DNA of 32,000 bases from Bacteroidia bacterium (GCA_016788065.1 JAEUTI010000048.1:1-32000), one strand, 5' to 3'. Shown: positions 1 to 30,425, counted from the first letter of the stretch. The notes: generated by a model not told the origin, from the letters alone. A program made the numbers and translations.

Positions 1-1536
1 ATCCATGTTGGTATCAAAGTCTCAACACCTACGTAGGTCGGTCCCTTCGGGGACTATATACTATGAAAAACTTCCTCTTAATCCTAAGTCTCAACACCTA
101 CGTAGGTCGGTCCCTTCGGGGACTCTGGGACAACACCTTTCAGGACAAGAACCAAGTCTCAACACCTACGTAGGTCGGTCCCTTCGGGGACTATATACTA
201 TGAAAAACTTCCTCTTAATCCTAAGTCTCAACACCTACGTAGGTCGGTCCCTTCGGGGACAGAGAAATTCTTGAAGTCCTCGTTTAATGAAGTCTCAACA
301 CCTACGTAGGTCGGTCCCTTCGGGGACAAAAGAGGAAGATAAAAATATCTCCAACAGTCTCAACACCTACGTAGGTCGGTCCCTTCGGGGACATTTCTAA
401 ATTGATTTTTGATTGGTAATAAGTCTCAACACCTACGTAGGTCGGTCCCTTCGGGGACATTGGAAAAAGCGTTTCCTCTAAGGAGGTAGGTCTCAACACC
501 TACGTAGGTCGGTCCCTTCGGGGACGAAGGAAACATTCCCGAAGAAATTATGGAAAGTCTCAACACCTACGTAGGTCGGTCCCTTCGGGGACAGTGACCT
601 AACTAGGAAACTAAACCATGTAACTGTCTCAACACCTACGTAGGTCGGTCCCTTCGGGGACAAAACTAAACAAACTTAAATCCAAAAATAATGGTCTCAA
701 CACCTACGTAGGTCGGTCCCTTCGGGGACTAAGTAGCTCACTAAATGTCTAACCCTTAAAGTCTCAACACCTACGTAGGTCGGCCCCTTCGGGGACACTT
801 AAACGATATGAATTACCAAAACAAAAAGTCTCAACACCTACGTAGGTCGGTCCCTTCGGGGACAGATGTAAAAACTCAATAAGTAAATTAAATTGTCTCA
901 ACACCTACGTAGGTCGGTCCCTTCGGGGACAATTGGTCTAAATACACTACTCTCAACAGATGGGTCTCAACACCTACGTAGGTCGGTCCCTTCGGGGACA
1001 AAAAAAAGTTCATTAAGAACCAAAAAACTATAGTCTCAACACCTACGTAGGTCGGTCCCTTCGGGGACTAAAAAAAGCTCATTTAAAATGAAAAAACGTC
1101 TCAACACCTACGTAGGTCGGTCCCTTCGGGGACTATGTAGGTTTATGCATACTAGCAATAATGGGTCTCAACACCTACGTAGGTCGGTCCCTTCGGGGAC
1201 AAAAACTGATCTGCAGTTTGATGAAGAAACTGTCTCAACACCTATGTAGGTCGGTCCCTTCGGGGACAAAAAAGAGGAGAAAAAGTAAGCAAACACGTGT
1301 CTCAACACCTATGTAGGTCGGTCCCTTCGGGGACAGTACCGGCACCTGCTCACCTCGGACTGTGAGTCTCAACACCTATGTAGGTCGGTCCCTTCGGGGA
1401 CCTTGAGGTTAGTAAAAGAATAGTCCTTAATCTGTCTCAACACCTACGTAGGTCGGTCCCTTCGGGGACTAAAAAGGGGGTCGGTTGTTATTGAGCCATC
1501 GTCTCAACACCTACGTAGGTCGGTCCCTTCGGGGAC
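1..1536 (-). CRISPR. CRISPR array with 23 copies of a 36-nt repeat and 22 complete spacers of 29-33 nt; truncated by the left window edge
   Basis: The repeat GTCTCAACACCTACGTAGGTCGGTCCCTTCGGGGAC (+ strand) starts at 19, 88, 156, 225, 292, 357, 423, 490, 557, 626, 694, 761, 828, 895, 964, 1033, 1098, 1165, 1232, 1299, 1366, 1434 and 1501. Point variants are T>C at 784 and C>T at 1245, 1312 and 1379. The minus strand is inferred from three things: the cas genes are on the minus strand, the AT-rich leader lies at the cas2 end, and the reverse-complement repeat ends in GTTGAGAC, which resembles an 8-nt crRNA handle. Confidence 0.97.
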
Positions 1537-1653
1537 TCTTGGCAAATATATGAATTGTATTTCAATATATTAAAAGGGTAAAATTCAGAAGCCAACCTCA
1601 AAATTTCTCCAGAATTCTGAAATTTGTGAAGGTTCTGAATAGGGTTTTTAATT
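1537..1653 (-). promoter_or_regulatory. Putative CRISPR leader between the cas2 stop and the first repeat
   Basis: This is a 117-nt AT-rich non-coding gap between cas2 (stop at 1654-1656) and repeat 23 (1501-1536). It contains the 7-mer TTCTGAA at 1615 and 1633 and its complement TTCAGAA at 1584. The role is inferred from position only. Confidence 0.6.
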
Positions 1654-1980
1654 TCAAACAATATAGGCGTGATCATCCTCTTTATCAAACGTATCTGAAG
1701 GGTTGCCAAAAGTTACCTTTTTTGCATTGGCATCAAGTTTAAAGATACGAATATTTCCGGTCTGAATATTCAATTTTTCAATTTCTTTAATTAAATTACG
1801 TAATTGGGATTTTGAAATCCTGCATTGAAATACACTTTTCTGAATTCTAAAACCATAACCGGAAATAACCTTGTCCGTAGCATTACGTTCCTTATCATTG
1901 GTGATGTCGTAAACAACAAGGTGTTCACCGGCACCTCTGAAACCGATAGCATTTTGAATATACCTGTTTAAATTTTCCAT
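1654..1980 (-). CDS. cas2: CRISPR-associated endoribonuclease Cas2
   Basis: The 108-aa product has the Cas2 core HLVVYDITNDKERN ... YGFRIQKSVFQC. It overlaps the stop of the upstream cas1 fusion by 13 nt and lies directly next to the leader and array. Confidence 0.9.
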   Translation of the reverse strand: MENLNRYIQNAIGFRGAGEHLVVYDITNDKERNATDKVISGYGFRIQKSVFQCRISKSQLRNLIKEIEKLNIQTGNIRIFKLDANAKKVTFGNPSDTFDKEDDHAYIV

Positions 1981-4598
1981 TGAATAAAGGTTAGCGAATG
2001 AAAATCTTTAGCCCAGCGTTTTACTATCAAAGCTTGCCAATATATTTGTTCCTTCCAGGTGAGTTCAGAACCGTTCATTTTTCTGTTGAGTTCAGCTTCA
2101 AATTCTAATAGGAATTTTTTTCTTGCTTCAGGTATGAGGAACAGACCATCTGTAGTTTCAGTAAAATCGGCTAGAGTAATCAACTTTAGATTGATTATCC
2201 GAAGCAAGAACCTGTGCAATCTGCCCCTGAATATTTCTTGTAAGTCAGCAACTAGGGTTTCATAACGCTCATTTTGTGAATGCAGGAAACCAAGGTAAGG
2301 ATTAAGGCCTAATGCTCTCAAAATGGTATTTATTCTTGTAAACAACAAATAAGATCCAAAATTCATCAGCGAATTTATTGCATCCGGTTTAATGCGATCT
2401 CTCCGTAGCATTTTGAATCCGGGTTCTTTTATAAAATGATTTATCTCGGCATACAACTCTTTAGTGTTGTAGCCTTCAATTCCCCGTAATTCATTCAAGG
2501 AAGAGGCCTGATTAATTTTTTCGATCGCTGATTCAATTCTGTTTAAAATCAAAACTGTGCCTTTGCCATATCTCTGTTTGAAAACCGGAAGGTAGTTGCG
2601 AAACTTCATCCCGGCAATTTCTTTTGCGATTGCTAAAATATCCTTTTCTGATAATTCTGCCATTCTCGCACTATGGTGGGCACTCATTTCATAGTATTGT
2701 TTATTGTCAGGTTTAATTGTAGTAACATGATAGCCCGTTTGCAACACGGAAGTAATTGGAATATTCATTTCTACACATTTTTTGATGAAGGATGTGCTAA
2801 AAGATGCCTTTTCCATAATTATAATTTCTGAAATTGCCTGCAAGGGAAATCGGGAAAAGATTTTTTTGTCTTTTCTGATTTCAATACTTTGACCAGCAAG
2901 CATCAATGAAACATATGGTTCTGTAATATATAGCGGTTGCTTTAGTGTTTTAATTTCTTCTTCCTTTTGAACTAGTAATTCTCCTCCTATAAATGTTAAT
3001 CCTATAAAATCAAAACCATGTTTTGCATCAAGTATGAACGTTTTATTCTTTTCAAGTCTTAGGCCATCTTCTGCAAGTAGCAACTCTATAGTGTATGCCA
3101 ATTTTAAAGCATCTTCGTGTGTTTTTGTCAACAGAATAAAATCGTCGGCGTAGCGTACATAACGAACAGGTAAGCTTTTTACTTTTTCATCGAAGCTGTC
3201 GAGATATAAATTTGCCAATAATGGAGAAAGTGGGCTTCCTTGGCTCAGCCCCTTTTCACGGATATTTACCTTATTATTAAGTTTGTAAGGCATTTGGATA
3301 GAAGTCTCTAATAGATGCCTTGTGATGGTATCACAAATTGGAATGACTTTATCAATTTTTTCTTTCAATAATTGATGATTTATATTCGGAAAGAATGTTT
3401 CTATATCAGTTCTGATTATATAAGAAAACCCGTTTTTCAAAGCTTGTTCAATAAGAGTTGCAGCTCTGTCACGACTGACTCCTTTTCTGAAACCTATCGA
3501 TTCGCGTTCAAAGAGTTTATCAAAATTGTCTCTCATTACCCGGTAAAGCATCAAATGGAGAAGTTGCTCCGCTGGCGGTAAGGTCTCTATTCTTCTTGAT
3601 TTCTTTCCATCACTTTTTATGGTAAATGCTTGTGTGGGAGAAGTAGTGAGTTTTTTTTCGATGCAATCAGAGTATAACTTTTCTATCCATTCATCTAGCT
3701 GGTCTTTGGTGAAAAGTTGAAAAAAGTTACTAAAGTTTTCATTTGTTTCAAGCAAATAGTTAAACGCTTCCTTCCATTCTGTAAATTTCTTTATTTTCTG
3801 ATCAAAGAACGGTTGATGATTTTCCAACACATGAAACTGACCTTGTGCGTTGCTTAAACGGGTTCCGAATCCAAATTCACTTCCTAGCAATAGCAAGAAA
3901 ATTGCTTCAGGCGTTAAATTTCTAATGTAAATATTTCCTTTACAACCTTTTATCCATTGAATGTTTTTGGCCGCACCCGAAGATTTCGAAATGTGCTTGA
4001 TATTGCTGCTATATGTTAGTGTATGTGAAATTATATCAAGTTGTTTAAATTTTACTAATTGAGATGAAGAAATGGTAATATTGAAAAGTCGGCGAATTCT
4101 AGCAGCAATTAAATTATAAAGAGATGCACCATCAAAGTATGTTTTAGGCTTTCCTGAAATTTCCGGAATTGTTGTTGGCGTGATGAATTCAATACAACAT
4201 TCATTAGATTCAAATTTTAGAGGGATTTTCAAAATGTCAAGTGTGCTTTTCTGTTTAAAAATGACATCACCAATAATTTCGAAATTTTTCTTTGTTACAT
4301 TCGAGCTAAAATAATTATATATTGATTGAATAAATCTCGTTACATTCCTTTCATCCTGATTGCATAAAATAATCTTAATTCTTACGATACTCCCAACTTT
4401 AATTGTTTCAAATTTAAGAGGCTCCTCAAATTGAAAAAAGATTGTTTCAACCTTAGAGTCACTGTTTATACTTTTGACTATGGCGTTCAGAATGGAAATG
4501 GGATGCTCCTTAACAACTTCATAATTATAACGAATATTCTTAAGTTGTAAATGAATGACATGCCACACAAGATTATTAAGCTCTACCGGTATATTCAT
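1968..4598 (-). CDS. cas1: Cas6-like / reverse transcriptase / Cas1 fusion protein (876 aa)
   Basis: Residues 1-290 (about nt 3729-4598) end in a Cas6-type glycine-rich loop, GSEFGFGTRLSNAQGQF (nt 3834-3884). Residues 330-540 carry RT motifs RRIETLPP, GFRKGVS, IIRTDIETFF, LSQGSPLSPLLANLYL, YVRYADDFILL (YADD at nt 3141-3152) and FDFIGLTF. Residues 555-876 form a Cas1 domain with RGIEG, GFLHS and VADLQEIFR. Confidence 0.9.
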   Translation of the reverse strand: MNIPVELNNLVWHVIHLQLKNIRYNYEVVKEHPISILNAIVKSINSDSKVETIFFQFEEPLKFETIKVGSIVRIKIILCNQDERNVTRFIQSIYNYFSSNVTKKNFEIIGDVIFKQKSTLDILKIPLKFESNECCIEFITPTTIPEISGKPKTYFDGASLYNLIAARIRRLFNITISSSQLVKFKQLDIISHTLTYSSNIKHISKSSGAAKNIQWIKGCKGNIYIRNLTPEAIFLLLLGSEFGFGTRLSNAQGQFHVLENHQPFFDQKIKKFTEWKEAFNYLLETNENFSNFFQLFTKDQLDEWIEKLYSDCIEKKLTTSPTQAFTIKSDGKKSRRIETLPPAEQLLHLMLYRVMRDNFDKLFERESIGFRKGVSRDRAATLIEQALKNGFSYIIRTDIETFFPNINHQLLKEKIDKVIPICDTITRHLLETSIQMPYKLNNKVNIREKGLSQGSPLSPLLANLYLDSFDEKVKSLPVRYVRYADDFILLTKTHEDALKLAYTIELLLAEDGLRLEKNKTFILDAKHGFDFIGLTFIGGELLVQKEEEIKTLKQPLYITEPYVSLMLAGQSIEIRKDKKIFSRFPLQAISEIIIMEKASFSTSFIKKCVEMNIPITSVLQTGYHVTTIKPDNKQYYEMSAHHSARMAELSEKDILAIAKEIAGMKFRNYLPVFKQRYGKGTVLILNRIESAIEKINQASSLNELRGIEGYNTKELYAEINHFIKEPGFKMLRRDRIKPDAINSLMNFGSYLLFTRINTILRALGLNPYLGFLHSQNERYETLVADLQEIFRGRLHRFLLRIINLKLITLADFTETTDGLFLIPEARKKFLLEFEAELNRKMNGSELTWKEQIYWQALIVKRWAKDFHSLTFIQWKI

Positions 4599-4657
4599 GA
4601 GCCCGACAATAATTTAAAATATTGCATTGAATGAAAAGGATTTTCCCATAATACATA

Positions 4658-5671
4658 TTAGTTAATGTTAATTTTCCGAGTTACTGTTCCTTTCTCCGAA
4701 GATATGCGGATAAAATAAACTCCTGCAGGCTGTTCAATTGAAATTTTTGTTAATCGATTGTTTATTTCTTTTTGTTGAACTATTTGTCCGAGTGTATTTA
4801 TTAATTCAAATACTAATGGCTGTTCAATATTATTTTTAAATTCGATAATGATATAATTATTTGCAGGATTAGGATACACTACAAATTCAGTGTGGTTTAA
4901 TTGCTCGTTAATTCCAGTAACGTCAATGATATTTAATGAATCAACATAAACAGTATGGCTCCATCGGGCATTAACGCTATCCCGAACACGCATAAATAGC
5001 ACATCATTTGGCTGGAACGGAATTTCATAATATGGGATATTAAAAACTACTGAATCATCGGCAAATGGTAGAGGGAAATAAAAAGAATGACAGTTTCCAA
5101 ATCCTAAATCCGTTGAATCAACAAAAAAGTATTCAACTTCAACTATTTGCATTTGATTTTCTGTTTGTATTACTTCTATATTCTTGCGGAAAGTATGACT
5201 CCATTTTCCATTGTTATCTTTCATTCTGCCATATAATTTGTGATAACCTATTGAAAGTCCATTAATTGCAGATGCAGGAATATTGAGAAGTTGGGTTATG
5301 TTAGAATCCTGATTAGAAATAATAATGGGAGTTGCCGATCCAAATGATGGATCGGTGTCAATAAACCATTCACCTATCATTACACTATCTTTATCTAAGG
5401 AAGGAACAATTTCGAAATTATACCTTGCAGTGTGGCTCCACATTCCATTACTGTCTTTTGTTCGCAAATAGAGTTTATGGTAGCCAAGTGCCAAACCCGA
5501 TGTTGTAATGGTTGGCAATTGCCAGGTGCTGTCAGCAGCGGGTATCAAGGCAAATGCTGCATTTCCAAAGCCCGGGTCAGTATCTATAAAATATTCCGCC
5601 TGAATTACGTTCTGAGCTCTGGCAGATCCAAATAGGACTAGCAGGTAGAGTAGTGTGATTATTTTTTTCAT
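4658..5671 (-). CDS. Secreted T9SS cargo protein with three internal ~70-aa repeats
   Basis: There is an N-terminal signal peptide (LLVLFGSARAQ). Three repeats begin AEYFIDTDPGFGN, GEWFIDTDPSFGS and VEYFFVDSTDLGFGN, and each ends in a K/RDxNxxWSHT motif. The C-terminal sorting domain reads VVYPNPANNYIIIEF ... GVYFIRISSEKGTVTRKININ. Confidence 0.8.
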   Translation of the reverse strand: MKKIITLLYLLVLFGSARAQNVIQAEYFIDTDPGFGNAAFALIPAADSTWQLPTITTSGLALGYHKLYLRTKDSNGMWSHTARYNFEIVPSLDKDSVMIGEWFIDTDPSFGSATPIIISNQDSNITQLLNIPASAINGLSIGYHKLYGRMKDNNGKWSHTFRKNIEVIQTENQMQIVEVEYFFVDSTDLGFGNCHSFYFPLPFADDSVVFNIPYYEIPFQPNDVLFMRVRDSVNARWSHTVYVDSLNIIDVTGINEQLNHTEFVVYPNPANNYIIIEFKNNIEQPLVFELINTLGQIVQQKEINNRLTKISIEQPAGVYFIRISSEKGTVTRKININ

Positions 5672-5697
5672 AGTAATATCTATTTTTGAGGGAATAG

Positions 5698-6801
5698 TTA
5701 TTTTATGGTGCGTGCTTTGATAGTGACGTCTAATCCGCTTTGTTGAGTAGCGGTTCCAGATGTGAATATGTCATAGATGACTGGAATAGAGGCAAGACCA
5801 GAAAGTGTGTAGCGGTTGGTCACTGAAGAGCCACCGAAAGCACCCCTGTCTGTTGAGTCGTCACCTGCATAATTATTTATTACACCACTTTGAAGTTGGT
5901 ATAATCCATCAGTTGAGCCATTTGCGACAAATAATGTTGTCATGTTTGGAACCAACTGATTGTTGTATCCTCCGGAATAATCAAATTGAGCATTAGATGA
6001 TCCCGTATTAAAAGAAACGCTTGATGAAGGTAAACCATTATTTATATTTAATGTAATAGACGCATCTTTAATAATGTTGTTTTTAAAATTGTTGGAATTC
6101 ATCTCAATCGAGGAACCAGTTAATTGAACATAATCGAAAACATTATTTCTACACTCGGCAACATTAATGTTAGCTAATTTGAGTGGAGCTTTAAAAATAT
6201 TATTATTGATGTATAGGCCAACAATTCCAAAGCCAACCGAGTAACCGATTGCTGCACCACTAAGTAATGCCCCGCTTAGGTAACATTGAATAATATTAAT
6301 GTCAGTTATACTATTGGACATTAAAATTCCACCACCAGAAGTTTTACATCTCCTAATAGTTATTGAGCTGGTATTAATTTTTATTCCATTCGTCCCTGTT
6401 ATAGTGACTCCAAGCAATTGGGATTGTTGAGACCCGTTATTGAAAGTAATATCATATAACTGGGTTTCAAGTTTTGAAACGGAGACATTTTCGTTCTGAT
6501 TTAGAAAATACCCCTCTCCAATTATTGTCAAAGGCTTGGTTAATGTTACACCGTTGTAATTCTGAGAAGAAGCACACCCCTCCAAATACAGGGTATCAAA
6601 ATTGACTGATGCATTTACTCCTTCTTGAAGAGTCTTGTAAACTGGATTTGCAAATGTCCCTCCAAAATTATCTCCCCACAATGTTGAACCGTTAAAATTC
6701 GAACTATTATTAACTCGTCTTATTGTGGCATTAGCTGAATAATGATTAAACAATACCGCTAACAGGATTGAAGTAATTGAAAGTAGTTTTTGAGTTTTCA
6801 T
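5698..6801 (-). CDS. Secreted protein with right-handed parallel beta-helix-like repeats
   Basis: The protein has a signal peptide (SILLAVLFNHYSANA). It is Asn/Gly/Ser/Ile-rich with short repeats such as ITIRRCKTSGGGILMSNSITDINIIQC and NNNIFKAPLKL..CRNNVFDYV..NSNNFKNNIIKD. The fold call rests on pattern recognition only. Confidence 0.55.
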   Translation of the reverse strand: MKTQKLLSITSILLAVLFNHYSANATIRRVNNSSNFNGSTLWGDNFGGTFANPVYKTLQEGVNASVNFDTLYLEGCASSQNYNGVTLTKPLTIIGEGYFLNQNENVSVSKLETQLYDITFNNGSQQSQLLGVTITGTNGIKINTSSITIRRCKTSGGGILMSNSITDINIIQCYLSGALLSGAAIGYSVGFGIVGLYINNNIFKAPLKLANINVAECRNNVFDYVQLTGSSIEMNSNNFKNNIIKDASITLNINNGLPSSSVSFNTGSSNAQFDYSGGYNNQLVPNMTTLFVANGSTDGLYQLQSGVINNYAGDDSTDRGAFGGSSVTNRYTLSGLASIPVIYDIFTSGTATQQSGLDVTIKARTIK

Positions 6802-6840
6802 TTTGGTTGTTTTTAATAGTTTGATAATATTTTTGATGAT

Positions 6841-8058
6841 TTAAAGTTTGACATTGTCTTTACTGATGTACCCTTGCTTTCCGCCTAGCAATTTGATTAA
6901 AATCCATTCTCCTTTAATTTCAACTATATCAAAAGGCGTGTTGCCAGGAACTTTTGTAGTCACTTCCGAGGAGGCATTTGCTTCTTTATGTACATCATAT
7001 CTGTCACCTTTACCTCCACGTGTAGTTAGTTTATTAGTTGAAGATCCGCTATTATTACCGCTAAAACTCACTGATTGGGGTGCAACTCCCAACTGTTCCA
7101 ATTTCTTTTTTTCTTCCTGCCATGCTTTAGCGGCATTTAACTCAGGTCCGTAGGTTTTATCATCAATTTCAGATGCCTTACCGAGTAGTTCAACTGCAAG
7201 GTCATAGTTTCCATAAAGAATTAGAATTTGTGACATGTTATATAGCGCTTCAGCATTGTAAGCATCTCTATCATAAATATCCTTGTATAATGAATATGCA
7301 CCGTGGGCATCTCCATTTTCCAATAAGTCCTGTGCTTTTTTGGCTTTATCTTTTTCTTCTTTTACTTTTATTTTTTTTAGGTTAGTATTGTAGTAAACAT
7401 AGTATGGACTAATATAATCAGCCAACGCTTTTGTTGCGTTTTTCATTGCAGCATCTGCCAAATCTGTAAATGCCATTTGTGCACCACCTTTGCATTCTTT
7501 GTTTTCACTTATCTTCTCTACTGTAGTAATCCCAAGCACCTGACCTGTATTAGGGTCAAGTATTTTCAAAGTTAGAATTATTTTTACCTGCCTTAAACTG
7601 CATCCATCTTGAGAACTACTATATTCATTTTTTTTACTTGTACCGCTTAAAATAGCATCTACTCCAAGAATTTTTCCGGCTTTTGTTGCTTCAGCATCAG
7701 TAATCAGTTTGCTTGATGATAACCTTTGCTCGCTCAATACTTTCTCTAATTCACTTCTTTCAACAATTGAATGAATGGCTGATGATGTGCCTTGCTGGTA
7801 AATTTTTGATTGCCTCCAACCATCATAAAGTCCAAGTGCATCACTATAATAGTATCTGGTTCCACGAGTATTATCCATAAACTGTGTTATCAATAAATCG
7901 GCAGCTTGTTTCCCATTGTCTCCTTCAAAATCAAGAACTGCGATTTTCTTAATATTAGGCATAACTTTTTCGGGCGATTTTAGAATTGCTCCTCCAAGTT
8001 GAGCTTTCAAAGTAACCGTAGCAGCAAATAATAATAATGTCAAAGTAATTATTTTCAT
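6841..8058 (-). CDS. Secreted multidomain protein (CsgG/LpoB-like N-terminal region, TPR-like middle, C-terminal SH3b-like domain)
   Basis: It has a signal peptide (LLLFAATVTLKAQ). The IAVLDFEGDNGKQAADLLITQF ... GVDAILSGT pattern is typical of CsgG/LpoB-type periplasmic domains. A helical AYNAEALYNMSQILILYGNYDLAVELLGKA segment looks TPR-like. The C-terminal GNTPFDIVEIKGEWILIKLLGGKQGYISKDNV looks SH3b-like. Confidence 0.5.
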   Translation of the reverse strand: MKIITLTLLLFAATVTLKAQLGGAILKSPEKVMPNIKKIAVLDFEGDNGKQAADLLITQFMDNTRGTRYYYSDALGLYDGWRQSKIYQQGTSSAIHSIVERSELEKVLSEQRLSSSKLITDAEATKAGKILGVDAILSGTSKKNEYSSSQDGCSLRQVKIILTLKILDPNTGQVLGITTVEKISENKECKGGAQMAFTDLADAAMKNATKALADYISPYYVYYNTNLKKIKVKEEKDKAKKAQDLLENGDAHGAYSLYKDIYDRDAYNAEALYNMSQILILYGNYDLAVELLGKASEIDDKTYGPELNAAKAWQEEKKKLEQLGVAPQSVSFSGNNSGSSTNKLTTRGGKGDRYDVHKEANASSEVTTKVPGNTPFDIVEIKGEWILIKLLGGKQGYISKDNVKL

Positions 8059-9107: not shown

Positions 9108-10930
9108 GCCTGATATGGTAATGTTAGTTCAACTCGTGTACCTGAAGGCTTATTATCTTTCGTTAGGTCGATAATTTTCAGATCGGCATGTATATTTTTC
9201 ATGGCATTTAGAATATTCAAACGTTCACGGGTAATTTTCATTCCCATTGATTGATGGTTTTTCAGCATTGGTTCAGTTACCTTTTTATTCAGGTTCCTTC
9301 CAACTCCATCATCTTCAACGATTGCGTGAATGGTATCTTCAATTTGCTCTATGATTATGTAAATATTTCCCGTGGCTTGTTTTGGCATGAGCCCGTGTTT
9401 AATTGCATTTTCTACCATTGGCTGTAGTATTAATGGTGGCACATATGTGTTTTCGATGTCAATTTTCTCATCAATATCAATATGGTAAATAAATGGTAAA
9501 TCTAAACGTAGATTTTCAAACTGCATGTACCATTCAAGAATTTGTAAATCCTGTGATAACGGAATCTCTTTTTTATCTGAACAATTTAAAACCGCTCTCA
9601 TGAGTTTGGAGAATTGAATTAAGTATTTTTCAGCTTCATCAGGTTTGTTTTCTCTTAAAAACTCTTGAATAGATATAAATGCATTATTTAGAAAGTGTGG
9701 GTTCATTTGTGAACGCAATGCCTTTAGTTCAGTCTCTGATATTTGCAGTGTTAAAGCAGTTTCCTTCTGTATTTGCCTTGCATCCCTTTGTCGTTTGTAA
9801 AAAAGAAATGAAATGAAAAAAGTAACCACTATAATAGCAATTAGCATAAAAAGATATTGATTTCGCATTTCTGTCTCTTTGATTTTAGCATCGCTATATG
9901 CTCTATCTATTTGGCGTTTGAACTCCTGCTCTTTTCTTTCAATAACAATTTGTTTCTTGCCTTCAACTCTCATACTATCACTCAATATAATAAAATTCTG
10001 GTATGCTTCAAGTGCTTCTTTAAATTTATTTTGACTTTTATAAATATCTGTAAGGAGTTTATATCCTTCATACTGATTTTGGACAACACCTGCTTTCTTG
10101 CTCATTTCAATTCCCTGCAATGCGAACCTGGATGCCTCTTCGTAATTATTTAAATAGAAATTAGCTTCACTTAAACCTGTATTGGCCTGTATAATGATTT
10201 CAGTAAAATTATTTTCTTCAGCCAACCTAAGAGCTAATTCGAAGTTTTTCTGAGCTTCCTTATACTGACCTTTTTTATCTAATAATCCGCCCATGTTTGT
10301 ATAACCATATGCAAGCAGTTGGTCATCCTTTAATTTTTCTCCATAGTGTATCACTTGTTCTAAGTACAAATTTGCGCTGTCTAAATTCTCTAAATTTAAA
10401 TAGCACAATGCGATATTATTAACCGCCATTGCAATTGATTTTTCATTTCCCAAATGCAAAGCTGCCCGGTAGAATTTCTTAAAGCCAGGAATCGCATGCT
10501 CAAAGTCACCCATCATCGCATAAATTTGTGCGATGTTATTCTCTATAACTTGAGCAGTAATGGTATCACCGATATCAATTGCTTCTTTAATGGCTTTTTG
10601 TGCATAGTCAAGCGAAGTAGTAAAATCGGACTTTGGCAAATAGAGAGCGCCCAAATGTCTGTATGCTTGAACAATACCTTGCCGGTAGTTTAATTCTTTA
10701 GCAAGTTGCAATGCCTCCTTTGCGCTTTTCACTGATTCTGCGTTATCCGTGTATTGCAATGCATCAGAATATAATATAAGAAGATTAAAGCGAGCTGTAT
10801 CCTTTGTTGTAAGTATTTTCAGTTTTTCTAATAGTTTTTCAGCAACTATATTTTGATTTTCGTCTATTTGAGCGCTTAAATAGTTGCAAGAAAAATGGCA
10901 GAGTAGAACAAGTATCAGTTTTTTTATCAT
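9104..10930 (-). CDS. TPR-repeat sensor histidine kinase (LytS/YehU type)
   Basis: The protein has a signal peptide, then about 330 aa of TPR-like repeats, then a single TM helix (YLFMLIAIIVVTFFISFLFY). This is followed by the His_kinase box QMNPHFLNNAFISIQ and an HATPase N-box (VENAIKHG). Confidence 0.88.
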   Translation of the reverse strand: MIKKLILVLLCHFSCNYLSAQIDENQNIVAEKLLEKLKILTTKDTARFNLLILYSDALQYTDNAESVKSAKEALQLAKELNYRQGIVQAYRHLGALYLPKSDFTTSLDYAQKAIKEAIDIGDTITAQVIENNIAQIYAMMGDFEHAIPGFKKFYRAALHLGNEKSIAMAVNNIALCYLNLENLDSANLYLEQVIHYGEKLKDDQLLAYGYTNMGGLLDKKGQYKEAQKNFELALRLAEENNFTEIIIQANTGLSEANFYLNNYEEASRFALQGIEMSKKAGVVQNQYEGYKLLTDIYKSQNKFKEALEAYQNFIILSDSMRVEGKKQIVIERKEQEFKRQIDRAYSDAKIKETEMRNQYLFMLIAIIVVTFFISFLFYKRQRDARQIQKETALTLQISETELKALRSQMNPHFLNNAFISIQEFLRENKPDEAEKYLIQFSKLMRAVLNCSDKKEIPLSQDLQILEWYMQFENLRLDLPFIYHIDIDEKIDIENTYVPPLILQPMVENAIKHGLMPKQATGNIYIIIEQIEDTIHAIVEDDGVGRNLNKKVTEPMLKNHQSMGMKITRERLNILNAMKNIHADLKIIDLTKDNKPSGTRVELTLPYQA

Positions 10931-11281
10931 AAATCCATTGGTCTTATTTCAAAGTAAGTTTATGTACGTTTTATAGTTAGTGTTTTTTAAATTCCGGACA
11001 ATAGCATCTTAAAGTAATTTATTGTGAATTTTGTATTTTCGGGTGATTTGATTTTTAGTATTGGGAATTGATTTATTTATGGTTAGCATATTCATAAATT
11101 GATATTGAAGTCCTTTTTAATTTCATTGATGAAGGCTGTGAGTGAATATTTATTTATCGTTATGCCAGTATTGTATATCTCTCGAATTCTTTTGTTACTG
11201 ATAAGAAAGGCAATAACGATTTGCGTTTAGTTGTTATATACCACATTAGAATAAACGTACATAATTAGAATTCCAATCAGG

Positions 11282-11652
11282 AATATCATTGGAGTATCCG
11301 ATTCCACTAAAAATAAGAAACTACATTCCAATTATCAACATTTTAAAGGTTTAATTTGGCAATTTTATTTATCTAAAAACCAATAACATAAAACCCACCC
11401 CCGTATTTATACCCGAGGGAAAACCCTTGCTTTTTGGTTGTAGGTTTTAGAAGTGGCGGCGTAGAATGGTGTTTTTGGGGAAGCCCATAATTGCCTGCAG
11501 TGCATCCTATTGTAGGCGTAATGCGTTAGAATATCAGTCAATTTTAATAAGAAGGTTGTGCTAACCTTTAGATAGATGTCAACATCACCGGAATGAGGGG
11601 TCAACATGAATCGGAATTGATGAAAATCTGGTTATGGGACTCCAATGATATT
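11282..11652. repeat. Long-range inverted repeat closing a 371-nt non-coding segment
   Basis: AATATCATTGGAGT (11282-11295) is the perfect reverse complement of ACTCCAATGATATT (11639-11652). An adjacent second pair is CCGATTC (11298-11304) with GAATCGG (11609-11615). No credible ORF lies inside the segment. Confidence 0.7.
11359..11471. repeat. Copy A of a ~114-nt direct repeat, downstream of the SGNH/2-TM cassette
   Basis: Hand alignment with 13714-13827 gives 98 matches in 114 columns. That includes a 37-nt perfect core, CCCGTATTTATACCCGAGGGAAAACCCTTGCTTTTTG (11400-11436 equals 13756-13792). Confidence 0.85.
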
Positions 11653-11662
11653 TACTGGCGCG

Positions 11663-11695
11663 GCGCATTTTAGTTCCTTAACCAACTAATAGCGC
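11663..11695 (-). terminator. Possible terminator hairpin after the 2-TM gene
   Basis: GCGC-ATT-TTAGTT / loop CCTTAACC / AACTAA-TA-GCGC lies 25 nt past the stop at 11721. No U-tract follows on the minus strand, so the call is weak. Confidence 0.25.
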
Positions 11696-11720
11696 AAGTG
11701 CGATGTTGGGATCTGAGGTT

Positions 11721-12443
11721 CTATTTATTCATTTTATTATTTATAGTTTGTTTGGGGTCTCTTTTATTACCAATAAAATTTTGTTTGAATTTTTTAAACA
11801 TTTTTATCATACTGCCATAAGTTCCAATACTTTTTCTCTTGTGTTTTGTCACAGGAAAACTTGTTTGCGTACGTTCGAGTTCAACTATGAAGTTAATTCT
11901 TATCTCTTTCCACTTTTTATAATGGGTAGTTCTTATTTGTTTGTTTGTTTCAAAAGTGAAGTCTCCATTATGAAGTTTTTCCAAATCAATGTGATAAATT
12001 TCTTTTAACGGTTCAAACGGATACAATCCCTCATCTTCATCAAAAATTTCATCAATATTTTCATAAACGCTTCTTATTTCTTCAATCGCTTTACTTATGC
12101 AAGATTTAAGTTTGAAATACCTTTCATCATTCTTTTCTTGGCAATAACTATAATCCATAAAGTCGGTATACACTTCCACAAGCAGCGAATAAACAGATCT
12201 TAAAGCTTTAAGATATTCATTGCGTCTTTGAAAACAGAAAACAATATATGCTGCGGGTATTGCAAAAATAATTGGCAGTAATTCTTTGAGTGTTGTATAA
12301 TATTTCTGATTGCTAACATTTAAATTCAAATGAAAAGCAAGTAAAACTACTATTATATAAAATAGGATTACAAATAATAAGATTCTATTTAAAACTATTC
12401 TTGTCATATATTGTTGAATATGTTTTAATGACTGTAAAGTCAT
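11721..12443 (-). CDS. Hypothetical membrane protein with two N-terminal TM helices
   Basis: The 240-aa product has TM segments ILLFVILFYIIVVLLAFHL and LLPIIFAIPAAYIVFCF, followed by an acidic then lysine-rich soluble tail. I recognise no family. It starts 64 nt downstream of the SGNH gene on the same strand. Confidence 0.6.
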   Translation of the reverse strand: MTLQSLKHIQQYMTRIVLNRILLFVILFYIIVVLLAFHLNLNVSNQKYYTTLKELLPIIFAIPAAYIVFCFQRRNEYLKALRSVYSLLVEVYTDFMDYSYCQEKNDERYFKLKSCISKAIEEIRSVYENIDEIFDEDEGLYPFEPLKEIYHIDLEKLHNGDFTFETNKQIRTTHYKKWKEIRINFIVELERTQTSFPVTKHKRKSIGTYGSMIKMFKKFKQNFIGNKRDPKQTINNKMNK

Positions 12444-12507
12444 CCTTTAAAAATTGCCAATTACTATCAATAACTAAAGTAATAAACTGTTCAAAAAGGT
12501 CTTCCTT

Positions 12508-13614
12508 TTATCTTCGTTTAGTCATTTTAGAATTAATTAGCTCGCTATACCGTGAAGCAACAACTTTATATTTATCACTTTTTAAATGTAATTCATCATA
12601 CCAGTCTTCTTGTGCTTTTGGAATATCACTACAATCTACATGATAAACATTTTCAAAATTACTCTCAATATCTCGCAGCATTTCGTTATATTCATAAATT
12701 AAAGTCGTCATAATAGCATGTTGTATTTCTTCATCATGAATCCCTTTAATCATCAATGGTCTGAATAACCATTTCCCAGACTTAAGAAAGGAGTTTACAA
12801 TTGGTTGAAGAGGGTATTTCCATGAGAAGTTAAGTCCTTTCTTAGGATATGGATATGCATATCCATGAGTGATACTAATCATATCTTTGAATTTATTAGT
12901 GTTATTATATATTCCATTAAAAATCATGGTATACTGTGCTTTCATAATCCAAATAAATGAATAGAATTCTTTAGTAATGTATTTTTGAGCTAAAAGAATT
13001 TGATTTTTTTGATATTCATCTTTGATATTTACTAAGGATTGTTGGGTATGTTTTAATTTTTGTTTATCTGTGCTCACCATTACAGCCATTCTTTCATTCC
13101 CTACTAAATCATTTCCTCCGCCACTTATTAAGAAGACATCTGGGGAATGAATTGTTAGCGCTTCTACATACTGTCCTTCATAAAGAATATTTGTTATCCA
13201 ATCACCACCATATGCATCTGAAAATATTAAGTAATTTTCGTTTCTTTCAAGCCAGTCTATTATATCTTTAACAAAAGTTGGAAACAAAAACCATGAATCA
13301 CCCTCGGCATAAATTTTAATATATTTCATATCTGGTTTTTGATTCTCGACACGTTTAAAGTAGCGCTTTTGTCTTATTTTCGTGCTACGTCTATTAAGCT
13401 TACCTAATATGCCTAAATTTGCATTAGAAGTTTCTCTTAGTCTTACTTCATTTAAATCATAGATATGTCTTATACATTCTCTAAAATCATTTAAAGACTG
13501 TTGTACATCAAACTTATTATTTTGTGATTTGTATGAATCTATTAAAGTAGCAAAGTCTACTGAATTAAAATCTAATGGGTTTTGCAACATCTTTTCAAGT
13601 AATGGCTTATTCAT
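12508..13614 (-). CDS. SGNH/GDSL-family hydrolase with no signal peptide and a ~95-aa N-terminal extension
   Basis: All four SGNH blocks are present: AEGDSW (Ser107), SDAYGGDW, SGGGNDL (Asn168) and WYDELH (Asp340/His343). The N-terminus is hydrophilic and has a basic patch, RRSTKIRQKRYFKR. Confidence 0.8.
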   Translation of the reverse strand: MNKPLLEKMLQNPLDFNSVDFATLIDSYKSQNNKFDVQQSLNDFRECIRHIYDLNEVRLRETSNANLGILGKLNRRSTKIRQKRYFKRVENQKPDMKYIKIYAEGDSWFLFPTFVKDIIDWLERNENYLIFSDAYGGDWITNILYEGQYVEALTIHSPDVFLISGGGNDLVGNERMAVMVSTDKQKLKHTQQSLVNIKDEYQKNQILLAQKYITKEFYSFIWIMKAQYTMIFNGIYNNTNKFKDMISITHGYAYPYPKKGLNFSWKYPLQPIVNSFLKSGKWLFRPLMIKGIHDEEIQHAIMTTLIYEYNEMLRDIESNFENVYHVDCSDIPKAQEDWYDELHLKSDKYKVVASRYSELINSKMTKRR

Positions 13615-15679: not shown

Positions 15680-15751
15680 TCATAAAAATCATTGACCTCA
15701 CATTCCTCACATAAATCACATTCCTCACATAAATCATAGTAATCACAGTCA
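15680..15751. repeat. 9-bp phased TCAYA array (8 units) abutting and including the stop codon of the 941-aa cargo gene
   Basis: Units start at 15680, 15689, 15698, 15707, 15716, 15725, 15734 and 15743. They read TCATAAAAA, TCATTGACC, TCACATTCC, TCACATAAA, TCACATTCC, TCACATAAA, TCATAGTAA and TCACAGTCA. The 18-mer TCACATTCCTCACATAAA is exactly duplicated. Confidence 0.8.
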
Positions 15752-18505
15752 GTTGTTAATAATCAACTTTTGGAACCTGCCTGTAAAATTTGATCCGGTT
15801 ACGACAACGGAATAGATGCCATTTGCCAGAGAAGATGTTTCTATTCGGGTGGATTGTTGCTGAAGTGGCTTTTCAGTAATTAAAGCTCCTTTAGCATCAT
15901 ATATCCGTAAGGTTCCATCAGGAATAGTTTGCGTAAGTATTAGCTGGACAAATGTGGATGCAGGATTTGGCATTAACACGAAGCCTGAATTGGGTGGATT
16001 GGTGAGTCCGGTAAAATAGACAGGATAACAAGCCGATGAGAAAGTACATCCCGATGAATCGGTTACCTGCAACTGATACCATCCTGTTGTTGTTGCCGTG
16101 AAGAGTGTGTCTGTGGTGCCACTGCTCAGAATATTTCCTGAGATACAATCAATCCATTCATAGAAAACACTTCCGTTGTTAGCAATAAATACGTTGTTAT
16201 TCACCAGGAGGTTGGTATCCGGATAATTCACCATAAGGGTAGTTGTAATAATACTATCGCATCCGGCTGCATTGTTTAATGTATCTTTATACGTTCCGGG
16301 AAGCGTATACCAGGAAGTGTTCACCTGAATACTATCGCCATTGCAAATAGTAAATGATTGTTGTAAGGAAGTTGGGCTACATTGAAAATTGAAGTTGTAG
16401 CTCCAATAAACACATCCCATATTTGAAGTAATCATCAAAGCATACATCCCCGGATGTGTGGGAGTATATTGCGGTCCATTTGCACCGGGAATAAACTGAT
16501 TATTGGTTGCATCATACCATGAATAGGTGAGAACGGTATCGGGGAAATTATAGAAATTGACATTTGAATTAATCTGACCTTGAGCAGTTGATAATTGCAC
16601 GTATGCATGAATCGGTCGCACGACATCTACATGCAAGCTGTCGCAACCATTGGAGCCGGTAAGCATTTGCGGGACATTTATGTAATTCGAGTACCAGTTT
16701 CCATTTATCTGAATGCTATCACCAGTGCATATATAATGAATAGCGGTAGTGTAAACAGGAGTGCAGCCATTCACTACAGGTACTTCTTCAACTTGAAAGA
16801 CTTCTTTGGTAATACTATCCTGAACAAAAACAACCAAACGCAGGCGCGACACTATTGTTGAAGTATCGGTTATTTGAAAAGAAAAATTAACCGAATCAAT
16901 CTGACCTAAAGCAGGGTTACCTATGTAAGTTCCTCGTGCATCCGGAAACATCTTCAGCATGGTATTTACAAACAGTGATTCGTTACTGGCTCCTTGAGGA
17001 GGAGTGACAATTGTATCCTGCAAAATTGCTACATGAATTTTGCAACGGGCTGCTGATTGAAATTGTACGGCTGAAGTTACAGTTGCCGATATTTCACCAT
17101 GGTAACCATTTGTAGTAAACGTTGGCTGAATATAAAAAAGGCCTTTAAGGTTATAGAGGCTGTCGATCATATTCTGATCAACATGCCAGGGGCATCCTTC
17201 CCAATAATTATAAACATCACTCATGGCAAGTTTACCGTTGGCATAGGCAGAAGGGAAGGATAAGGTGTTGTAAAAATGAATCCTGGTATTTACTTCCGTT
17301 TGTGACCATGCCAGATTATATCCACCTTGTTCGAGCTTTAAATCGGAAGCTTTTACGCGGTTGAGCGCAAGAATGCTGTCGTACTTTACAGTCCAGTAAC
17401 CACAATAAGTACACCAGGTACCTTTCGACTGCTCAAACAATGCACGGCGGGGAGGTAAAGTCGGTGCAACGAAGACATCAAACTGAAATTGATTGTTTGA
17501 TAAATCGGCATCAGTATTATTATTAACATTAACAGCCTCCACCAGAATGGTATACGTGCCGGAAGTTGCCGGATTCAATGGGTTAGTAAAATTAAAGACT
17601 TGTGAATTTCCGCACGGAATATTTAAGCTGTTAAAGGTTTGTGTTTGCTGCAATACGCCGTTAACTGAATAGGTAAGTGTGAGCGTGTTTACGGTATCGG
17701 TTCCGAGATTCCTGAACTTAATTGGAATAGTATACGGGGCATCTGCAATTTCCTGATAAGGATATAACGAAGTAGCGATGAGAGCTCCATCAGTTTGCAA
17801 ATCAGTGCCGGGAGAAAATTCATAATAAACGTTATCTACGTCGTACCAGCTTGAACCGGAAAGTGAAGGAACATTAGGCGAGCCCGGAACCATATAAGCG
17901 GTTGTATTATCGATTTGAATGCCTGCCGATACAGAAATGCTTGATAAGGGATGTTTGAATGCGTCTATGAAATAAATTTTATTGGAATTTTCTTCCAATA
18001 CCACAAACCATGAAACCGGATAAGCAAATTGGTTTCCTACAGTATCAGAAAATTGACTGAACATGATCCATTTTCTTTTAGGGCTGATATTCATGCCGTA
18101 CATAGGTTCTGATAAGATAATTACTTTCGAATTTGTACCAGATGCTTTTATGCCTGTCACACACAAAGATTTATCCGGTACCAATGCATTGGGCAGCGTG
18201 ACTGCTCCGAACGGGGGAGCGATGGCTGCAGTTGTATCAAAGGTCACCACACCGGTAGATGATACTTTAAAATGAGTGACGGAGTCGCCATTGAAAACAA
18301 AAGGAAAACCTATAGGATATACAGTTGACCAAACCGGGTTTAATTGCTGGTACATGGCAAAAATTACACCTGATGCATATAAATCTTCATCAACGTATTC
18401 AGAAGGATTACCGGTTTCATCAATATGAGGAATACAACGGTACTGGGCATGTACGGTCAACGCCTGGACCAGGCAAAACAAAAAGATAGTCAGAATCCGT
18501 CTCAT
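15749..18505 (-). CDS. Large secreted T9SS cargo protein with Cys-rich repeat modules
   Basis: I place the start at Met24 of the ORF (ATG at 18505), which gives the signal peptide MRRILTIFLFCLVQALTVHAQ. The ORF itself extends to 18574. Two modules have the form C.GDSIQ(I/V)N..WY....GCDS. There is a WCTYCGYW motif. The T9SS C-terminal domain reads FVLMPNPASTFVQLIL ... GIYSVVVTGSNFTGRFQKLIINN. Confidence 0.8.
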   Translation of the reverse strand: MRRILTIFLFCLVQALTVHAQYRCIPHIDETGNPSEYVDEDLYASGVIFAMYQQLNPVWSTVYPIGFPFVFNGDSVTHFKVSSTGVVTFDTTAAIAPPFGAVTLPNALVPDKSLCVTGIKASGTNSKVIILSEPMYGMNISPKRKWIMFSQFSDTVGNQFAYPVSWFVVLEENSNKIYFIDAFKHPLSSISVSAGIQIDNTTAYMVPGSPNVPSLSGSSWYDVDNVYYEFSPGTDLQTDGALIATSLYPYQEIADAPYTIPIKFRNLGTDTVNTLTLTYSVNGVLQQTQTFNSLNIPCGNSQVFNFTNPLNPATSGTYTILVEAVNVNNNTDADLSNNQFQFDVFVAPTLPPRRALFEQSKGTWCTYCGYWTVKYDSILALNRVKASDLKLEQGGYNLAWSQTEVNTRIHFYNTLSFPSAYANGKLAMSDVYNYWEGCPWHVDQNMIDSLYNLKGLFYIQPTFTTNGYHGEISATVTSAVQFQSAARCKIHVAILQDTIVTPPQGASNESLFVNTMLKMFPDARGTYIGNPALGQIDSVNFSFQITDTSTIVSRLRLVVFVQDSITKEVFQVEEVPVVNGCTPVYTTAIHYICTGDSIQINGNWYSNYINVPQMLTGSNGCDSLHVDVVRPIHAYVQLSTAQGQINSNVNFYNFPDTVLTYSWYDATNNQFIPGANGPQYTPTHPGMYALMITSNMGCVYWSYNFNFQCSPTSLQQSFTICNGDSIQVNTSWYTLPGTYKDTLNNAAGCDSIITTTLMVNYPDTNLLVNNNVFIANNGSVFYEWIDCISGNILSSGTTDTLFTATTTGWYQLQVTDSSGCTFSSACYPVYFTGLTNPPNSGFVLMPNPASTFVQLILTQTIPDGTLRIYDAKGALITEKPLQQQSTRIETSSLANGIYSVVVTGSNFTGRFQKLIINN

Positions 18506-18611
18506 GGGCCTATTATTTAAAGCTAAAATAAATAAAATTGCCGGAACTCCACAACTATTAGTGGATATTTTCAAAATTTTCCGCTAACAAAGATTTTTTA
18601 TGGATAAGTGT

Positions 18612-18700
18612 AAGGAAAGGGGAGGTGGAAGAGAGAAGGAGAATGGGAATGAGAATGAGAACGGCAATGAGAACGGGAAAGGAAGAGAACGAGACAAAAA
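18612..18700. repeat. 89-nt polypurine (plus strand) / polypyrimidine (minus strand) tract with GAGAAY repeats
   Basis: By hand count, 79 of 89 plus-strand bases are purines. GAGAAY recurs at 18639, 18651, 18657, 18669 and 18685. The tract lies about 107 nt upstream of the cargo-gene ATG at 18505. Confidence 0.8.
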
Positions 18701-18727
18701 CGCAATTGTCACTTGTCTTTAAACCTA

Positions 18728-18763
18728 TCACAGTAATCATTTAAATCAAATAAATCACAGTCC
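18728..18763. repeat. 9-bp phased TCAxA array (4 units) downstream of the 469-aa cargo gene
   Basis: The units are TCACAGTAA, TCATTTAAA, TCAAATAAA and TCACAGTCC at 18728, 18737, 18746 and 18755. The end units resemble the last units of the 15680-15751 array. Confidence 0.65.
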
Positions 18764-18796
18764 ATTGGTGGTTGCATTCTTGGAAGCACACCCTTA

Positions 18797-24670: not shown

Positions 24671-24696
24671 TTTCAGATACAACCCTTCATACAGAT

Positions 24697-27786: not shown

Positions 27787-27827
27787 TTCCGACTTTGAAT
27801 ACATTTCTGACAAAGACAATATAAACT

Positions 27828-29216: not shown

Positions 29217-29721
29217 AATCGCTTACGGCATTTTCGACGACGATGATGTTGTTATGCATGCCATCCCTAAACTTCAGGAAAAGAAATTTAAGGTTGTAGA
29301 TGTTATATCACCCTTTCCAATTCACGGATTGGATCATGCACTGGGTCTGAAAAGAACCCGTATTTCTATGGCAGCATTCATGTACGGTATCACCGGTACC
29401 AGTCTAGCATTGCTGATGATGTGGTATATGAATATCTGGGACTGGCCAATGGATATCGGTGGTAAACCAAGTTTTGCCCTGTATAAAAATTTGCCTGCAT
29501 TTATTCCTGTAACATTTGAATCGACTGTATTATGTGCTGCTCACGGAATGGTTATTACTTTCTATCTGAGAAGTAAATTGCTTCCTGGAGTTGAACCACA
29601 TGTAATAGATGTTCGTGCAACTGATGACCGTTTCGTAATGGCCATTGAAGTTAAAACTGATGCTGATAAAGATGCCGCTCATGCTGCAATGAAAGCATTG
29701 GGTGCAATGTATGTTAAATAA
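29206..29721 (+). CDS. actD: Alternative complex III subunit ActD (DUF3341-type)
   Basis: The 171-aa product overlaps the actC stop by 11 nt. The N-terminal soluble part is YGIFDDDDVVMHAI and is followed by TM helices. Its position in the operon supports the call. Confidence 0.8.
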   Translation: MSTKIAYGIFDDDDVVMHAIPKLQEKKFKVVDVISPFPIHGLDHALGLKRTRISMAAFMYGITGTSLALLMMWYMNIWDWPMDIGGKPSFALYKNLPAFIPVTFESTVLCAAHGMVITFYLRSKLLPGVEPHVIDVRATDDRFVMAIEVKTDADKDAAHAAMKALGAMYVK

Positions 29722-29757
29722 GAAGCAGCTAATCTGATAAATAGAAACTCACAAGCA

Positions 29758-30411: not shown

Positions 30412-30425
30412 TAACAGAAGGAACT

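Follow-up and report, generated by a model that had tools for sequence, protein, structure and literature searches.

An intact, divergent Cas6-RT-Cas1/Cas2 module with its CRISPR array in a Bacteroidia genome, and the question of its effector

Where is the effector that would use the CRISPR RNAs (crRNAs) of a locus in which RNA processing, reverse transcription and integration are joined in one protein, and whose visible flank encodes no effector gene? The question is raised by a stretch of 32,000 nt (the window, meaning the whole of the DNA analysed here) taken from a 75,381-nt contig of a Bacteroidia bacterium (GCA_016788065.1 JAEUTI010000048.1:1-32000); at one end of the window, a Cas6-reverse transcriptase (RT)-Cas1 fusion gene, cas2 and a large CRISPR array lie side by side. 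In our reading the locus supplies adaptation and processing to a type III-style CRISPR-Cas system assisted by a reverse transcriptase, and we find the Cas6-RT-Cas1/Cas2/leader/array module to be genuine, intact and divergent, of an already known type, and at most 40% identical to known proteins. Its effector, made of cas10 and the RAMP subunits, is a little more likely than not to lie beyond the array or a contig break, in which case the locus would be an ordinary RT-type III system seen incompletely. The parts of the module are as follows.

1968-4598, minus strand: cas6-RT-cas1 fusion gene, an open reading frame (ORF) of 876 aa (Pfam, NCBIfam, PADLOC)
3813-4598, minus strand: Cas6 domain, residues 1-262 of the fusion (AlphaFold2 (AF2) domain model, Foldseek, PADLOC)
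2979-3704, minus strand: group-II-intron-type RT domain, residues 299-540 (profiles and conserved aspartates)
1971-2942, minus strand: Cas1 integrase domain, residues 553-876 (profiles, conserved residues, fold)
1654-1980, minus strand: cas2, 108 aa (Pfam CRISPR_Cas2, 1.3e-16; TIGR01573, 1.1e-16; PADLOC Cas2_IIIa, 9.8e-21)
1537-1653, minus strand: leader of 117 nt, 28% GC, the gap between cas2 and the first repeat
1-1536, minus strand: CRISPR array with 23 repeats of 36 nt (repeats at 19-1536) and 22 spacers of 29-33 nt

The fusion protein has the same sequence as GenBank MBL7915064.1, an entry from the metagenome-assembled genome (MAG) of a Bacteroidia bacterium, and its protein cluster has a single NCBI member. 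Pfam matched RVT_1 at residues 342-536 (3e-24) and Cas_Cas1 at residues 556-834 (4e-53), and NCBIfam returned cas1 (7.7e-51) and the group II intron RT model TIGR04416 (4.6e-44). The best PADLOC model was Cas1_IIIb (1.5e-71), which covers both the RT and the Cas1 parts, with an RT model at 1.1e-51. Motif C of the RT, YADD, occupies residues 483-486 (3141-3152) and the motif A aspartate is D398; the three aspartates D398, D485 and D486 are invariant in a 46-sequence family alignment and all are kept here. In the Cas1 part, the motifs RGIEG (residues 705-709), GFLHS (770-774) and ADLQE (784-788) are present, and the metal-binding residues E708, H773 and D785, invariant in the same alignment, are intact, as is E788. 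The Cas1 portion was matched to Cas1 structures with target-normalised TM scores of 0.8-0.88 in a fold search, and the full-length AF2 model of the fusion reached a pLDDT of 88. The sequence-only reading, made before these searches, had described a three-part ORF with these motifs at these places, and the description was borne out by Pfam, NCBIfam, PADLOC and the fold search. Judged from sequence and predicted structure, the product is one polypeptide that joins a Cas6 fold to an RT and a Cas1 with intact active-site residues.

The Cas6 part had so far been proposed from the sequence alone, and it was put to the test here. Pfam gave no Cas6 match for the fusion protein itself, whereas 42 of the 46 aligned full-length homologues matched PF10040 CRISPR_Cas6; a PADLOC Cas6 model was found at 2.7e-5 on residues 117-247 in a scan of residues 1-290 alone. 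In a separate AlphaFold model built from a 21-sequence alignment (pLDDT 84.3), residues 1-295 form two beta-alpha-beta-beta-alpha-beta halves of the RRM/ferredoxin-like kind, and the G-rich loop GSEFGFGTRLSNAQGQF (residues 239-255, 3834-3884) follows the last helix and precedes the last strand. The best 31 Foldseek matches of this model in the PDB are all Cas6, with E values from 2e-11 to 3.5e-7 and query-normalised TM scores of 0.4-0.6, and they include the proteins of Sulfolobus, Thermus and Streptococcus, a type IV Cas6, the MMB-1 Cas6 domain 6DD5, and 7KFT/7KFU. An N-terminal Cas6 region with a G-rich loop had been proposed earlier, and a Cas6 fold is indeed found within residues 1-290.

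The Cas6 domain is also the most divergent part of the protein, with 21-27% identity to relatives against 31-40% for the whole protein, and it carries H56Q, W194L, G227N, H243G and Y254Q at family positions that are 89-98% conserved. Such changes would favour an explanation in which the module has no cognate type III effector, and either pairs with an effector of another class that is common in Bacteroidota, for example Cas13b, or is an orphan that is in another role or decaying. Both type VI-A and type VI-B systems have recruited RT-Cas1 modules, with the type VI-B cases chiefly in Bacteroidetes (PMC11662929). However, the RT-Cas1 linked to type VI-B belongs to clade 2, which lacks Cas6 (PMC11662929), and Cas13 processes its own crRNA; the window protein, in contrast to the clade 2 RT-Cas1 of type VI-B1, has a Cas6 domain, and the window contains no large HEPN protein and no PADLOC cas13b match. 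The candidate helix-1 motif HP...K42 is kept. Moreover, the Cas6 site of the Thiomicrospira enzyme uses an arginine, R37, and not a histidine (PMC8102632), so that the loss of histidine here does not by itself predict inactivity. We regard the explanation without a type III partner as unlikely, and its version in which an intact module with a growing, strand-biased spacer set persists alone, and either feeds another effector class such as a Cas13b encoded elsewhere or serves as an RNA-derived memory that lacks interference machinery, as quite unlikely.

How does the module compare with the systems that have been studied at the bench? The Cas6-RT-Cas1 modules of MMB-1 and Thiomicrospira acquire spacers from RNA in experiments (PMC8102632, PMC11014452, PMC10828431), as had been noted for fusions of this kind. 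The Thiomicrospira Cas6-RT-Cas1-Cas2 complex (7KFT/7KFU; Wang et al. 2021, PMC8102632) has the same domain order and a Cas2 partner. No other PDB entry matches the fusion as well by sequence (3.3e-46 with the single sequence, 8.4e-105 with the family profile), and 7KFU is the best fold match to the full-length model (975 aligned columns, E 4.5e-34). Its G-rich loop region, RT and Cas1 align with the window fusion, but the first ~210 Cas6 residues do not align by sequence; the two proteins are ~18% identical over the full-length fold alignment, and the Thiomicrospira host is a gammaproteobacterium. That enzyme cuts its own 35-nt repeat RNA and integrates both DNA and RNA (PMC8102632).

The MMB-1 protein, whose Cas6 domain 6DD5 matches the window Cas6 by fold (E ~1e-9, TM 0.54), serves as the functional model: there the Cas6 domain is needed both for crRNA biogenesis and for the acquisition of RNA spacers, and RNA protospacers receive short 3' tails from the RT. 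It is of a distant lineage, has an adjacent cmr operon, and takes spacers of 34-36 nt as against 29-33 nt here. MMB-1, with which the locus had been compared from the sequence, serves as an analogue in function and is no close relative; the nearest solved relative is ~18-22% identical in fold alignments, and the nearest sequence 40%. By analogy, a function similar to that of MMB-1 would be expected, and the module may well work as the MMB-1 and Thiomicrospira systems do.

Among ~5.8 billion proteins, the nearest other one is 40% identical to the fusion, and the closest sequences span many phyla (Nitrospirota, Desulfobacterota, Bacteroidota, WOR-3 and Aminicenantes). A scan of a species-representative genome collection with the fusion gave as its sole match an unrelated RT in a Saccharibacteria MAG. 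Cas6-RT-Cas1 fusions have been placed in clade 8, of Proteobacteria and Planctomycetes, and clade 11, of Porphyromonas and Bacteroidetes, and in both clades they are linked to Cmr or Csm modules (Toro et al. 2017/2018; PMC5541045, PMC6013744). Clade 11 shares the host phylum Bacteroidetes with the window, and we make no assignment from the host alone; since the G-rich loop aligns with that of the clade 8 Thiomicrospira protein, membership in clade 11 is not to be assumed from the host. With the Cas6 fold, RT and Cas1 all found in one protein, we file the module in the Cas6-RT-Cas1 family.

The remaining parts of the module follow directly. The start of cas2 overlaps the 3' end of the fusion gene by 13 nt and the two genes are translationally coupled, and the array begins 117 nt past cas2; both distances agree with the earlier description. 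In the leader, the Bacteroidetes -7 box TAnnTTTG is matched once, as TATATTTG at 1543-1550, 6 nt before the first repeat, which makes it a candidate array promoter by its sequence, whereas a scan of 1400-5000 for sigma-70 promoters and terminators gave nothing above the shuffled expectation. The leader end of the array is its cas2-proximal end at 1536. At the other end, the array leaves the window at base 1 in the middle of a spacer, of which 18 nt are seen, so that it has at least 23 repeats. Nineteen of the 23 repeats are identical and 21 of the 22 spacers are unique, and the array looks active and selected. The near-uniform repeats, together with the intact active sites of RT and Cas1, argue against a decaying orphan.

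Some details of the array stand apart. The repeats at 1232-1267, 1299-1334 and 1366-1401 share one substitution, C>T on the plus strand at position 14 of the repeat, which falls within the hairpin 2 loop, and both leader-proximal repeats are wild type despite this substitution in three consecutive repeats further in, a pattern that is not expected if the first repeat were simply copied at each acquisition. A fourth variant, the repeat at 761-796, has a different single change. Beside the window edge, identical 33-nt spacers lie at 55-87 and 192-224 with one other spacer between them, and full identity extends over 107 nt, from 17-123 to 154-260; the duplication is either real or an assembly loop at a contig end. 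An adjacent duplicated spacer also occurs in L004 (P0009, JGI Ga0272443_10000992), the locus of a metagenomic relative whose fusion is 39% identical.

The orientation and likely processing of the array could be read from its repeats. On the minus strand the repeat is GTCCCCGAAGGGACCGACCTACGTAGGTGTTGAGAC, and its RNA is predicted to form two hairpins, of which the 5' one is short, and to leave a single-stranded tail of 8 nt at the 3' end, GUUGAGAC. The repeats of five relatives fold alike, with two hairpins and a tail of 7-8 nt in all six repeats folded, while the stem sequences differ; this comparison is made on the individual folds, and a MAFFT alignment sets the window hairpins one column out of register. 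Read in the same direction as cas1, the relatives' repeats begin with a GTCC-GAGA-GGAC 5' hairpin followed by a stem-loop, and most of those linked to cas10 end in CTGAAAC or CGGAAAC. The window repeat, read on the minus strand, ends in GTTGAGAC after hairpin 2, a 3' end of the ..UGA(A/G)AC kind that goes with an 8-nt crRNA 5' tag in type III systems. The L004 repeat, also 36 nt long, folds into these two hairpins and has CTGAAAC at its 3' end, and the order of cas2, leader and array is common to the window, L004, L006 and L007. From the orientation and the folds of the relatives' repeats, the array is placed on the strand of the cas genes, transcribed from the leader on the cas2 side, and position 1536 is where new spacers would be expected to enter. 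The clade's type III-style repeat architecture with its 3' tag speaks against a module that lacks a type III partner.

Taken with what is known of the MMB-1 and Thiomicrospira enzymes, these features suggest the following course of events. Cas6-RT-Cas1 and Cas2 would form the integrase complex and insert spacers of ~31 nt at the leader-proximal repeat, drawing either on DNA or on RNA, the latter through 3' tailing, reverse transcription or both. The array would be transcribed on the minus strand from the leader, and the Cas6 domain would cut each repeat at the 3' base of the second hairpin, to leave a crRNA with the 8-nt 5' tag GUUGAGAC; in vivo, the tag would thus come from cleavage by Cas6. 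The interference genes would stand just past the distal end of the array, as in L004, or on a contig that broke off at the array.

Whether such crRNAs serve an effector at all can be approached through the spacers, which contain 31% GC against 38% for the window. In the crRNA sense, all 22 spacers together are 43.5% T and 25.5% A. The target-sense AT skew of the window spacers is +0.26 (16 positive, 3 negative, p=0.001), significantly above that of coding-sense windows of the host, which is only +0.04. Skew in the same direction was found in 11 independent arrays of relatives (106 positive, 43 negative, p=2e-9), and over all 276 spacers it was positive in 181 and negative in 76; the arrays used were those of the window and of L002, L006, L007, L010, L011, L013, L018, L019, L022, L024, L025, L032, L037 and L053. 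Both spacer termini are strongly A/T across the clade, at 70-89%, with this range of A+T at positions 1-3 and 4% G at position -3. Spacers that are AT-rich and strand-biased in this way give U-rich crRNAs.

Two causes would be consistent with this bias: crRNAs that are complementary to transcripts rich in A, or acquisition from RNA that is directional. The bias matches published RT-Cas1 behaviour and suggests a coupling to RNA-guided interference; if it arose by selection for crRNAs against A-rich transcripts, the array serves an RNA-sensing effector somewhere. The RT-Cas1 systems of Fusicatenibacter saccharivorans and Vibrio vulnificus are likewise reported to take AT-rich spacers, acquired close to where genes begin and end and biased to the antisense orientation (PMC10828431); the window resembles them in its 31% GC, AT-rich ends and U-rich crRNAs. 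The acquisitions in those two systems are experimental and mapped to known transcripts, whereas the source and the sense of the window spacers are suggested by their composition. Of the 21 unique spacers, none found a protospacer among 50,697 phage records at E<=1, and none matched the window itself at <=6 mismatches; the cores of two GC-richer spacers had no match in IMG/VR.

Two further patterns in the spacers were followed and set aside. In the crRNA sense, a 3' T-run of at least 4 stands right before the next repeat in 7 of the 21 unique spacers, against 8% internally (p=0.001), examples being those at 1002-1032, 1069-1097 and 1201-1231 in plus-strand coordinates. Some of these runs are preceded by a small hairpin, for instance GGTTCTTAATGAACTTTTTTTT, and resemble the 3' ends of intrinsic terminators. 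Short non-templated tails have been described at the spacer-repeat junctions of RT-Cas1 systems (PMC11014452); the tails of MMB-1 are mainly dA, so T-runs on the strand seen here do not fit them. The proposal that the runs are captured terminator ends or non-templated tails was set aside, as it is not interpretable without protospacers. The other pattern, a CCA(T) start at the spacer 5' end (crRNA sense, the complement of ATGG), was considered as an acquisition signature of the clade and failed replication: it is seen in 11 of 118 spacers in the window, L002 and L006 (p=3e-6), and in 3 of 159 in 11 further arrays (p=0.65), and is either specific to a locus or due to chance.

If an RNA-sensing effector exists, it is not encoded on the visible flank, which begins with the following gene.

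4658-5671, minus strand: type IX secretion system (T9SS) cargo gene with a Por_Secre_tail domain (Pfam), a flanking gene outside the system that marks the edge of the cas module

This gene is co-oriented with the fusion and lies 59 nt upstream of it. Beyond it, Pfam found no cas or defence family among the ORFs of at least 90 aa in 4658-32000, and PADLOC found no defence family in the ORFs scanned there, which included all those without a Pfam match. A phmmer search with 37 Cas10, Cmr and RAMP type III proteins from relatives against every ORF of 70 aa or longer in the six frames of the window returned nothing, and Rfam and tRNA scans of the window were likewise empty. The earlier claims of a co-oriented T9SS neighbour and of a 27-kb flank free of cas10, csm/cmr and other cas genes are thus upheld.

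What 4658-32000 does contain is T9SS cargo proteins, a CsgG/TPR/SH3 lipoprotein, a LytTR two-component pair, an SDR, a thioesterase, DUF4476 and SPOR proteins, and an alternative complex III operon. Several co-oriented secreted proteins with T9SS C-terminal sorting domains are grouped in 4658-8058 and 15749-20206, and these stretches also hold a 367-aa signal-peptide protein without a family match and the CsgG/TPR/SH3 lipoprotein, with no match to a defence model. The alternative complex III operon at 23426-31619 (multihaem cytochrome c, molybdopterin/FeS subunit, NrfD-like protein, ActD, cytochrome c and a further membrane protein) looks complete, is ordinary housekeeping, and is useful for placing the MAG.

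Could the effector be missing because the cas-array segment is foreign to these genes, joined to them by mis-binning or chimeric assembly? The sequence does come from a MAG, and the identical spacers at 55-87 and 192-224, near the edge, are a possible assembly loop. However, the T9SS gene and cas6-RT-cas1 are on one strand and are parted by a clean intergenic stretch of 59 nt, and composition is continuous across it (GC 0.34 vs 0.35; GC at third codon positions, GC3, 0.31 vs 0.27). At 34% GC, the cas genes resemble the genes around them (34-36%), and composition therefore gives no hint of a recent transfer. A chimera would in any case leave the whereabouts of the effector still unexplained, and we consider it very unlikely.

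Related loci give a guide to where the effector should be sought. Among those gathered by exact-protein look-ups and a metagenome scan, and annotated with a type III effector protein set, 18 distinct loci have a fusion that is nearly full length and an upstream flank of 5 kb or more. A cas10/cmr or cas10/large-RAMP operon lies upstream of cas6-RT-cas1, within 10 kb, in 16 of the 18; for 15 of these the evidence is clear or likely, and for L013 it is a single weak RAMP match. Counting both sides, 17 of the 18 have a type III effector operon within 10 kb, and the close clade members with cas2 and an array are all tied to type III genes. L004 is of the same build as the window, with housekeeping genes upstream and then cas6-RT-cas1, cas2, leader and array, but its far array side, visible there and outside the window here, carries cas10 and the RAMP genes, cas10 beginning ~220 nt past the last repeat.

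Elsewhere among the relatives, a CorA-family gene lies next to the cmr operon of L007 (2213-3766), Csx3 together with a HEPN/nucleotidyltransferase pair lies beside the cmr operon of L010 (6754-7732), and in L009 (12981-13620) cas2 is followed by a single degenerate repeat with no array. The contig of L008 ends 261 nt after cas2, an assembly break like the one suspected here.

One relative departs from all others. In L035 (JGI Ga0079997_129426, a 93-kb contig), the fusion at 9926-12622 is an intact homologue with 34% identity and the motifs YGDD, RGLEG, GFLHS and ADLQE, and no cas2, array or effector was found within 10 kb on either side. Its neighbours are ThrRS, Ppx, an MFS transporter, SufB and, 2.5 kb downstream, a gene of the poly(A)-polymerase/CCA-adding-enzyme family; it may be a domesticated solo Cas6-RT-Cas1.

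L035 bears on a second explanation for the window, that of a stand-alone adaptation-and-processing module whose crRNAs load, in trans, a type III effector encoded elsewhere in the chromosome. Type III complexes can use crRNAs from unlinked arrays, and a module with its own Cas6 could deliver finished crRNAs without nearby partners. The 27 kb upstream hold no cas genes, where most relatives have an effector within 10 kb; the local GC match of the cas genes implies a settled arrangement and no fresh insertion; and L035 is a case of a fusion gene away from any effector. Yet L035 lacks cas2 and an array and so presents a different situation, no clade member was found that has cas2 and an array with both flanks demonstrably free of effector genes, and the distal side of the window's own array lies outside the window. 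We take operation in trans to be possible, and clearly short of probable.

The placement of the effector past the array, which we prefer, has to be weighed against several points. The visible sequence stops at base 1, inside the array, with its distal side outside the window; the order in which the effector follows the array is rare, found in one of the 18 relatives (L004); L035, standing alone, indicates that physical uncoupling does occur in the clade; and the strand bias of the spacers could stem from a directional acquisition mechanism and not from selection by an effector. The window is thus of a minority architecture, in which both outcomes, an effector after the array and none nearby, have precedent.

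Arrays commonly break assemblies, and since the window begins inside a spacer, base 1 is likely to be the contig end. As the window ends inside the array, one flank is unseen, and the missing effector is not yet an anomaly. In the survey of Toro et al. 2017, 41 of 110 CRISPR-associated RTs had a partial or unknown effector complex (PMC5541045), so that an effector out of sight is frequent in such data and falls short of a discovery. For these reasons, and with the precedent of L004, the view in the sequence-only reading that the locus is unusual for its lack of an effector finds no support as the locus stands. Its two alternatives, an effector past the array and a module working in trans, were nevertheless the right ones; we keep the first as a little more probable than its negation and the second as a tentative possibility, so that an effector past the array is somewhat more likely than operation in trans. 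Because the signature gene cas10, like the Cas7/Cas5-family RAMP genes, is not seen in the visible 32 kb, with the locus cut inside the array, we file it as a type III-style adaptation module and not as a complete type III locus.

As seen now, the locus poses no challenge to current understanding. To our knowledge, RT-Cas1 modules are the only natural route by which RNA sequence is written into a genome, and they underlie transcriptional recording tools. A divergent Bacteroidia variant, at most 40% identical to anything in ~5.8 billion proteins, with ~31-nt spacers, a compact two-hairpin repeat and an atypical Cas6, is a useful data point for enzyme mining, and the same features inform how Cas6, RT and Cas1 co-evolve with the repeat. 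Should the complete genome show the module to be separate from every effector operon, it would lend itself well to the question of how adaptation and processing modules serve effectors in trans, and if the genome held no type III effector at all, the stand-alone fusion of L035 would represent a further step on the same path.

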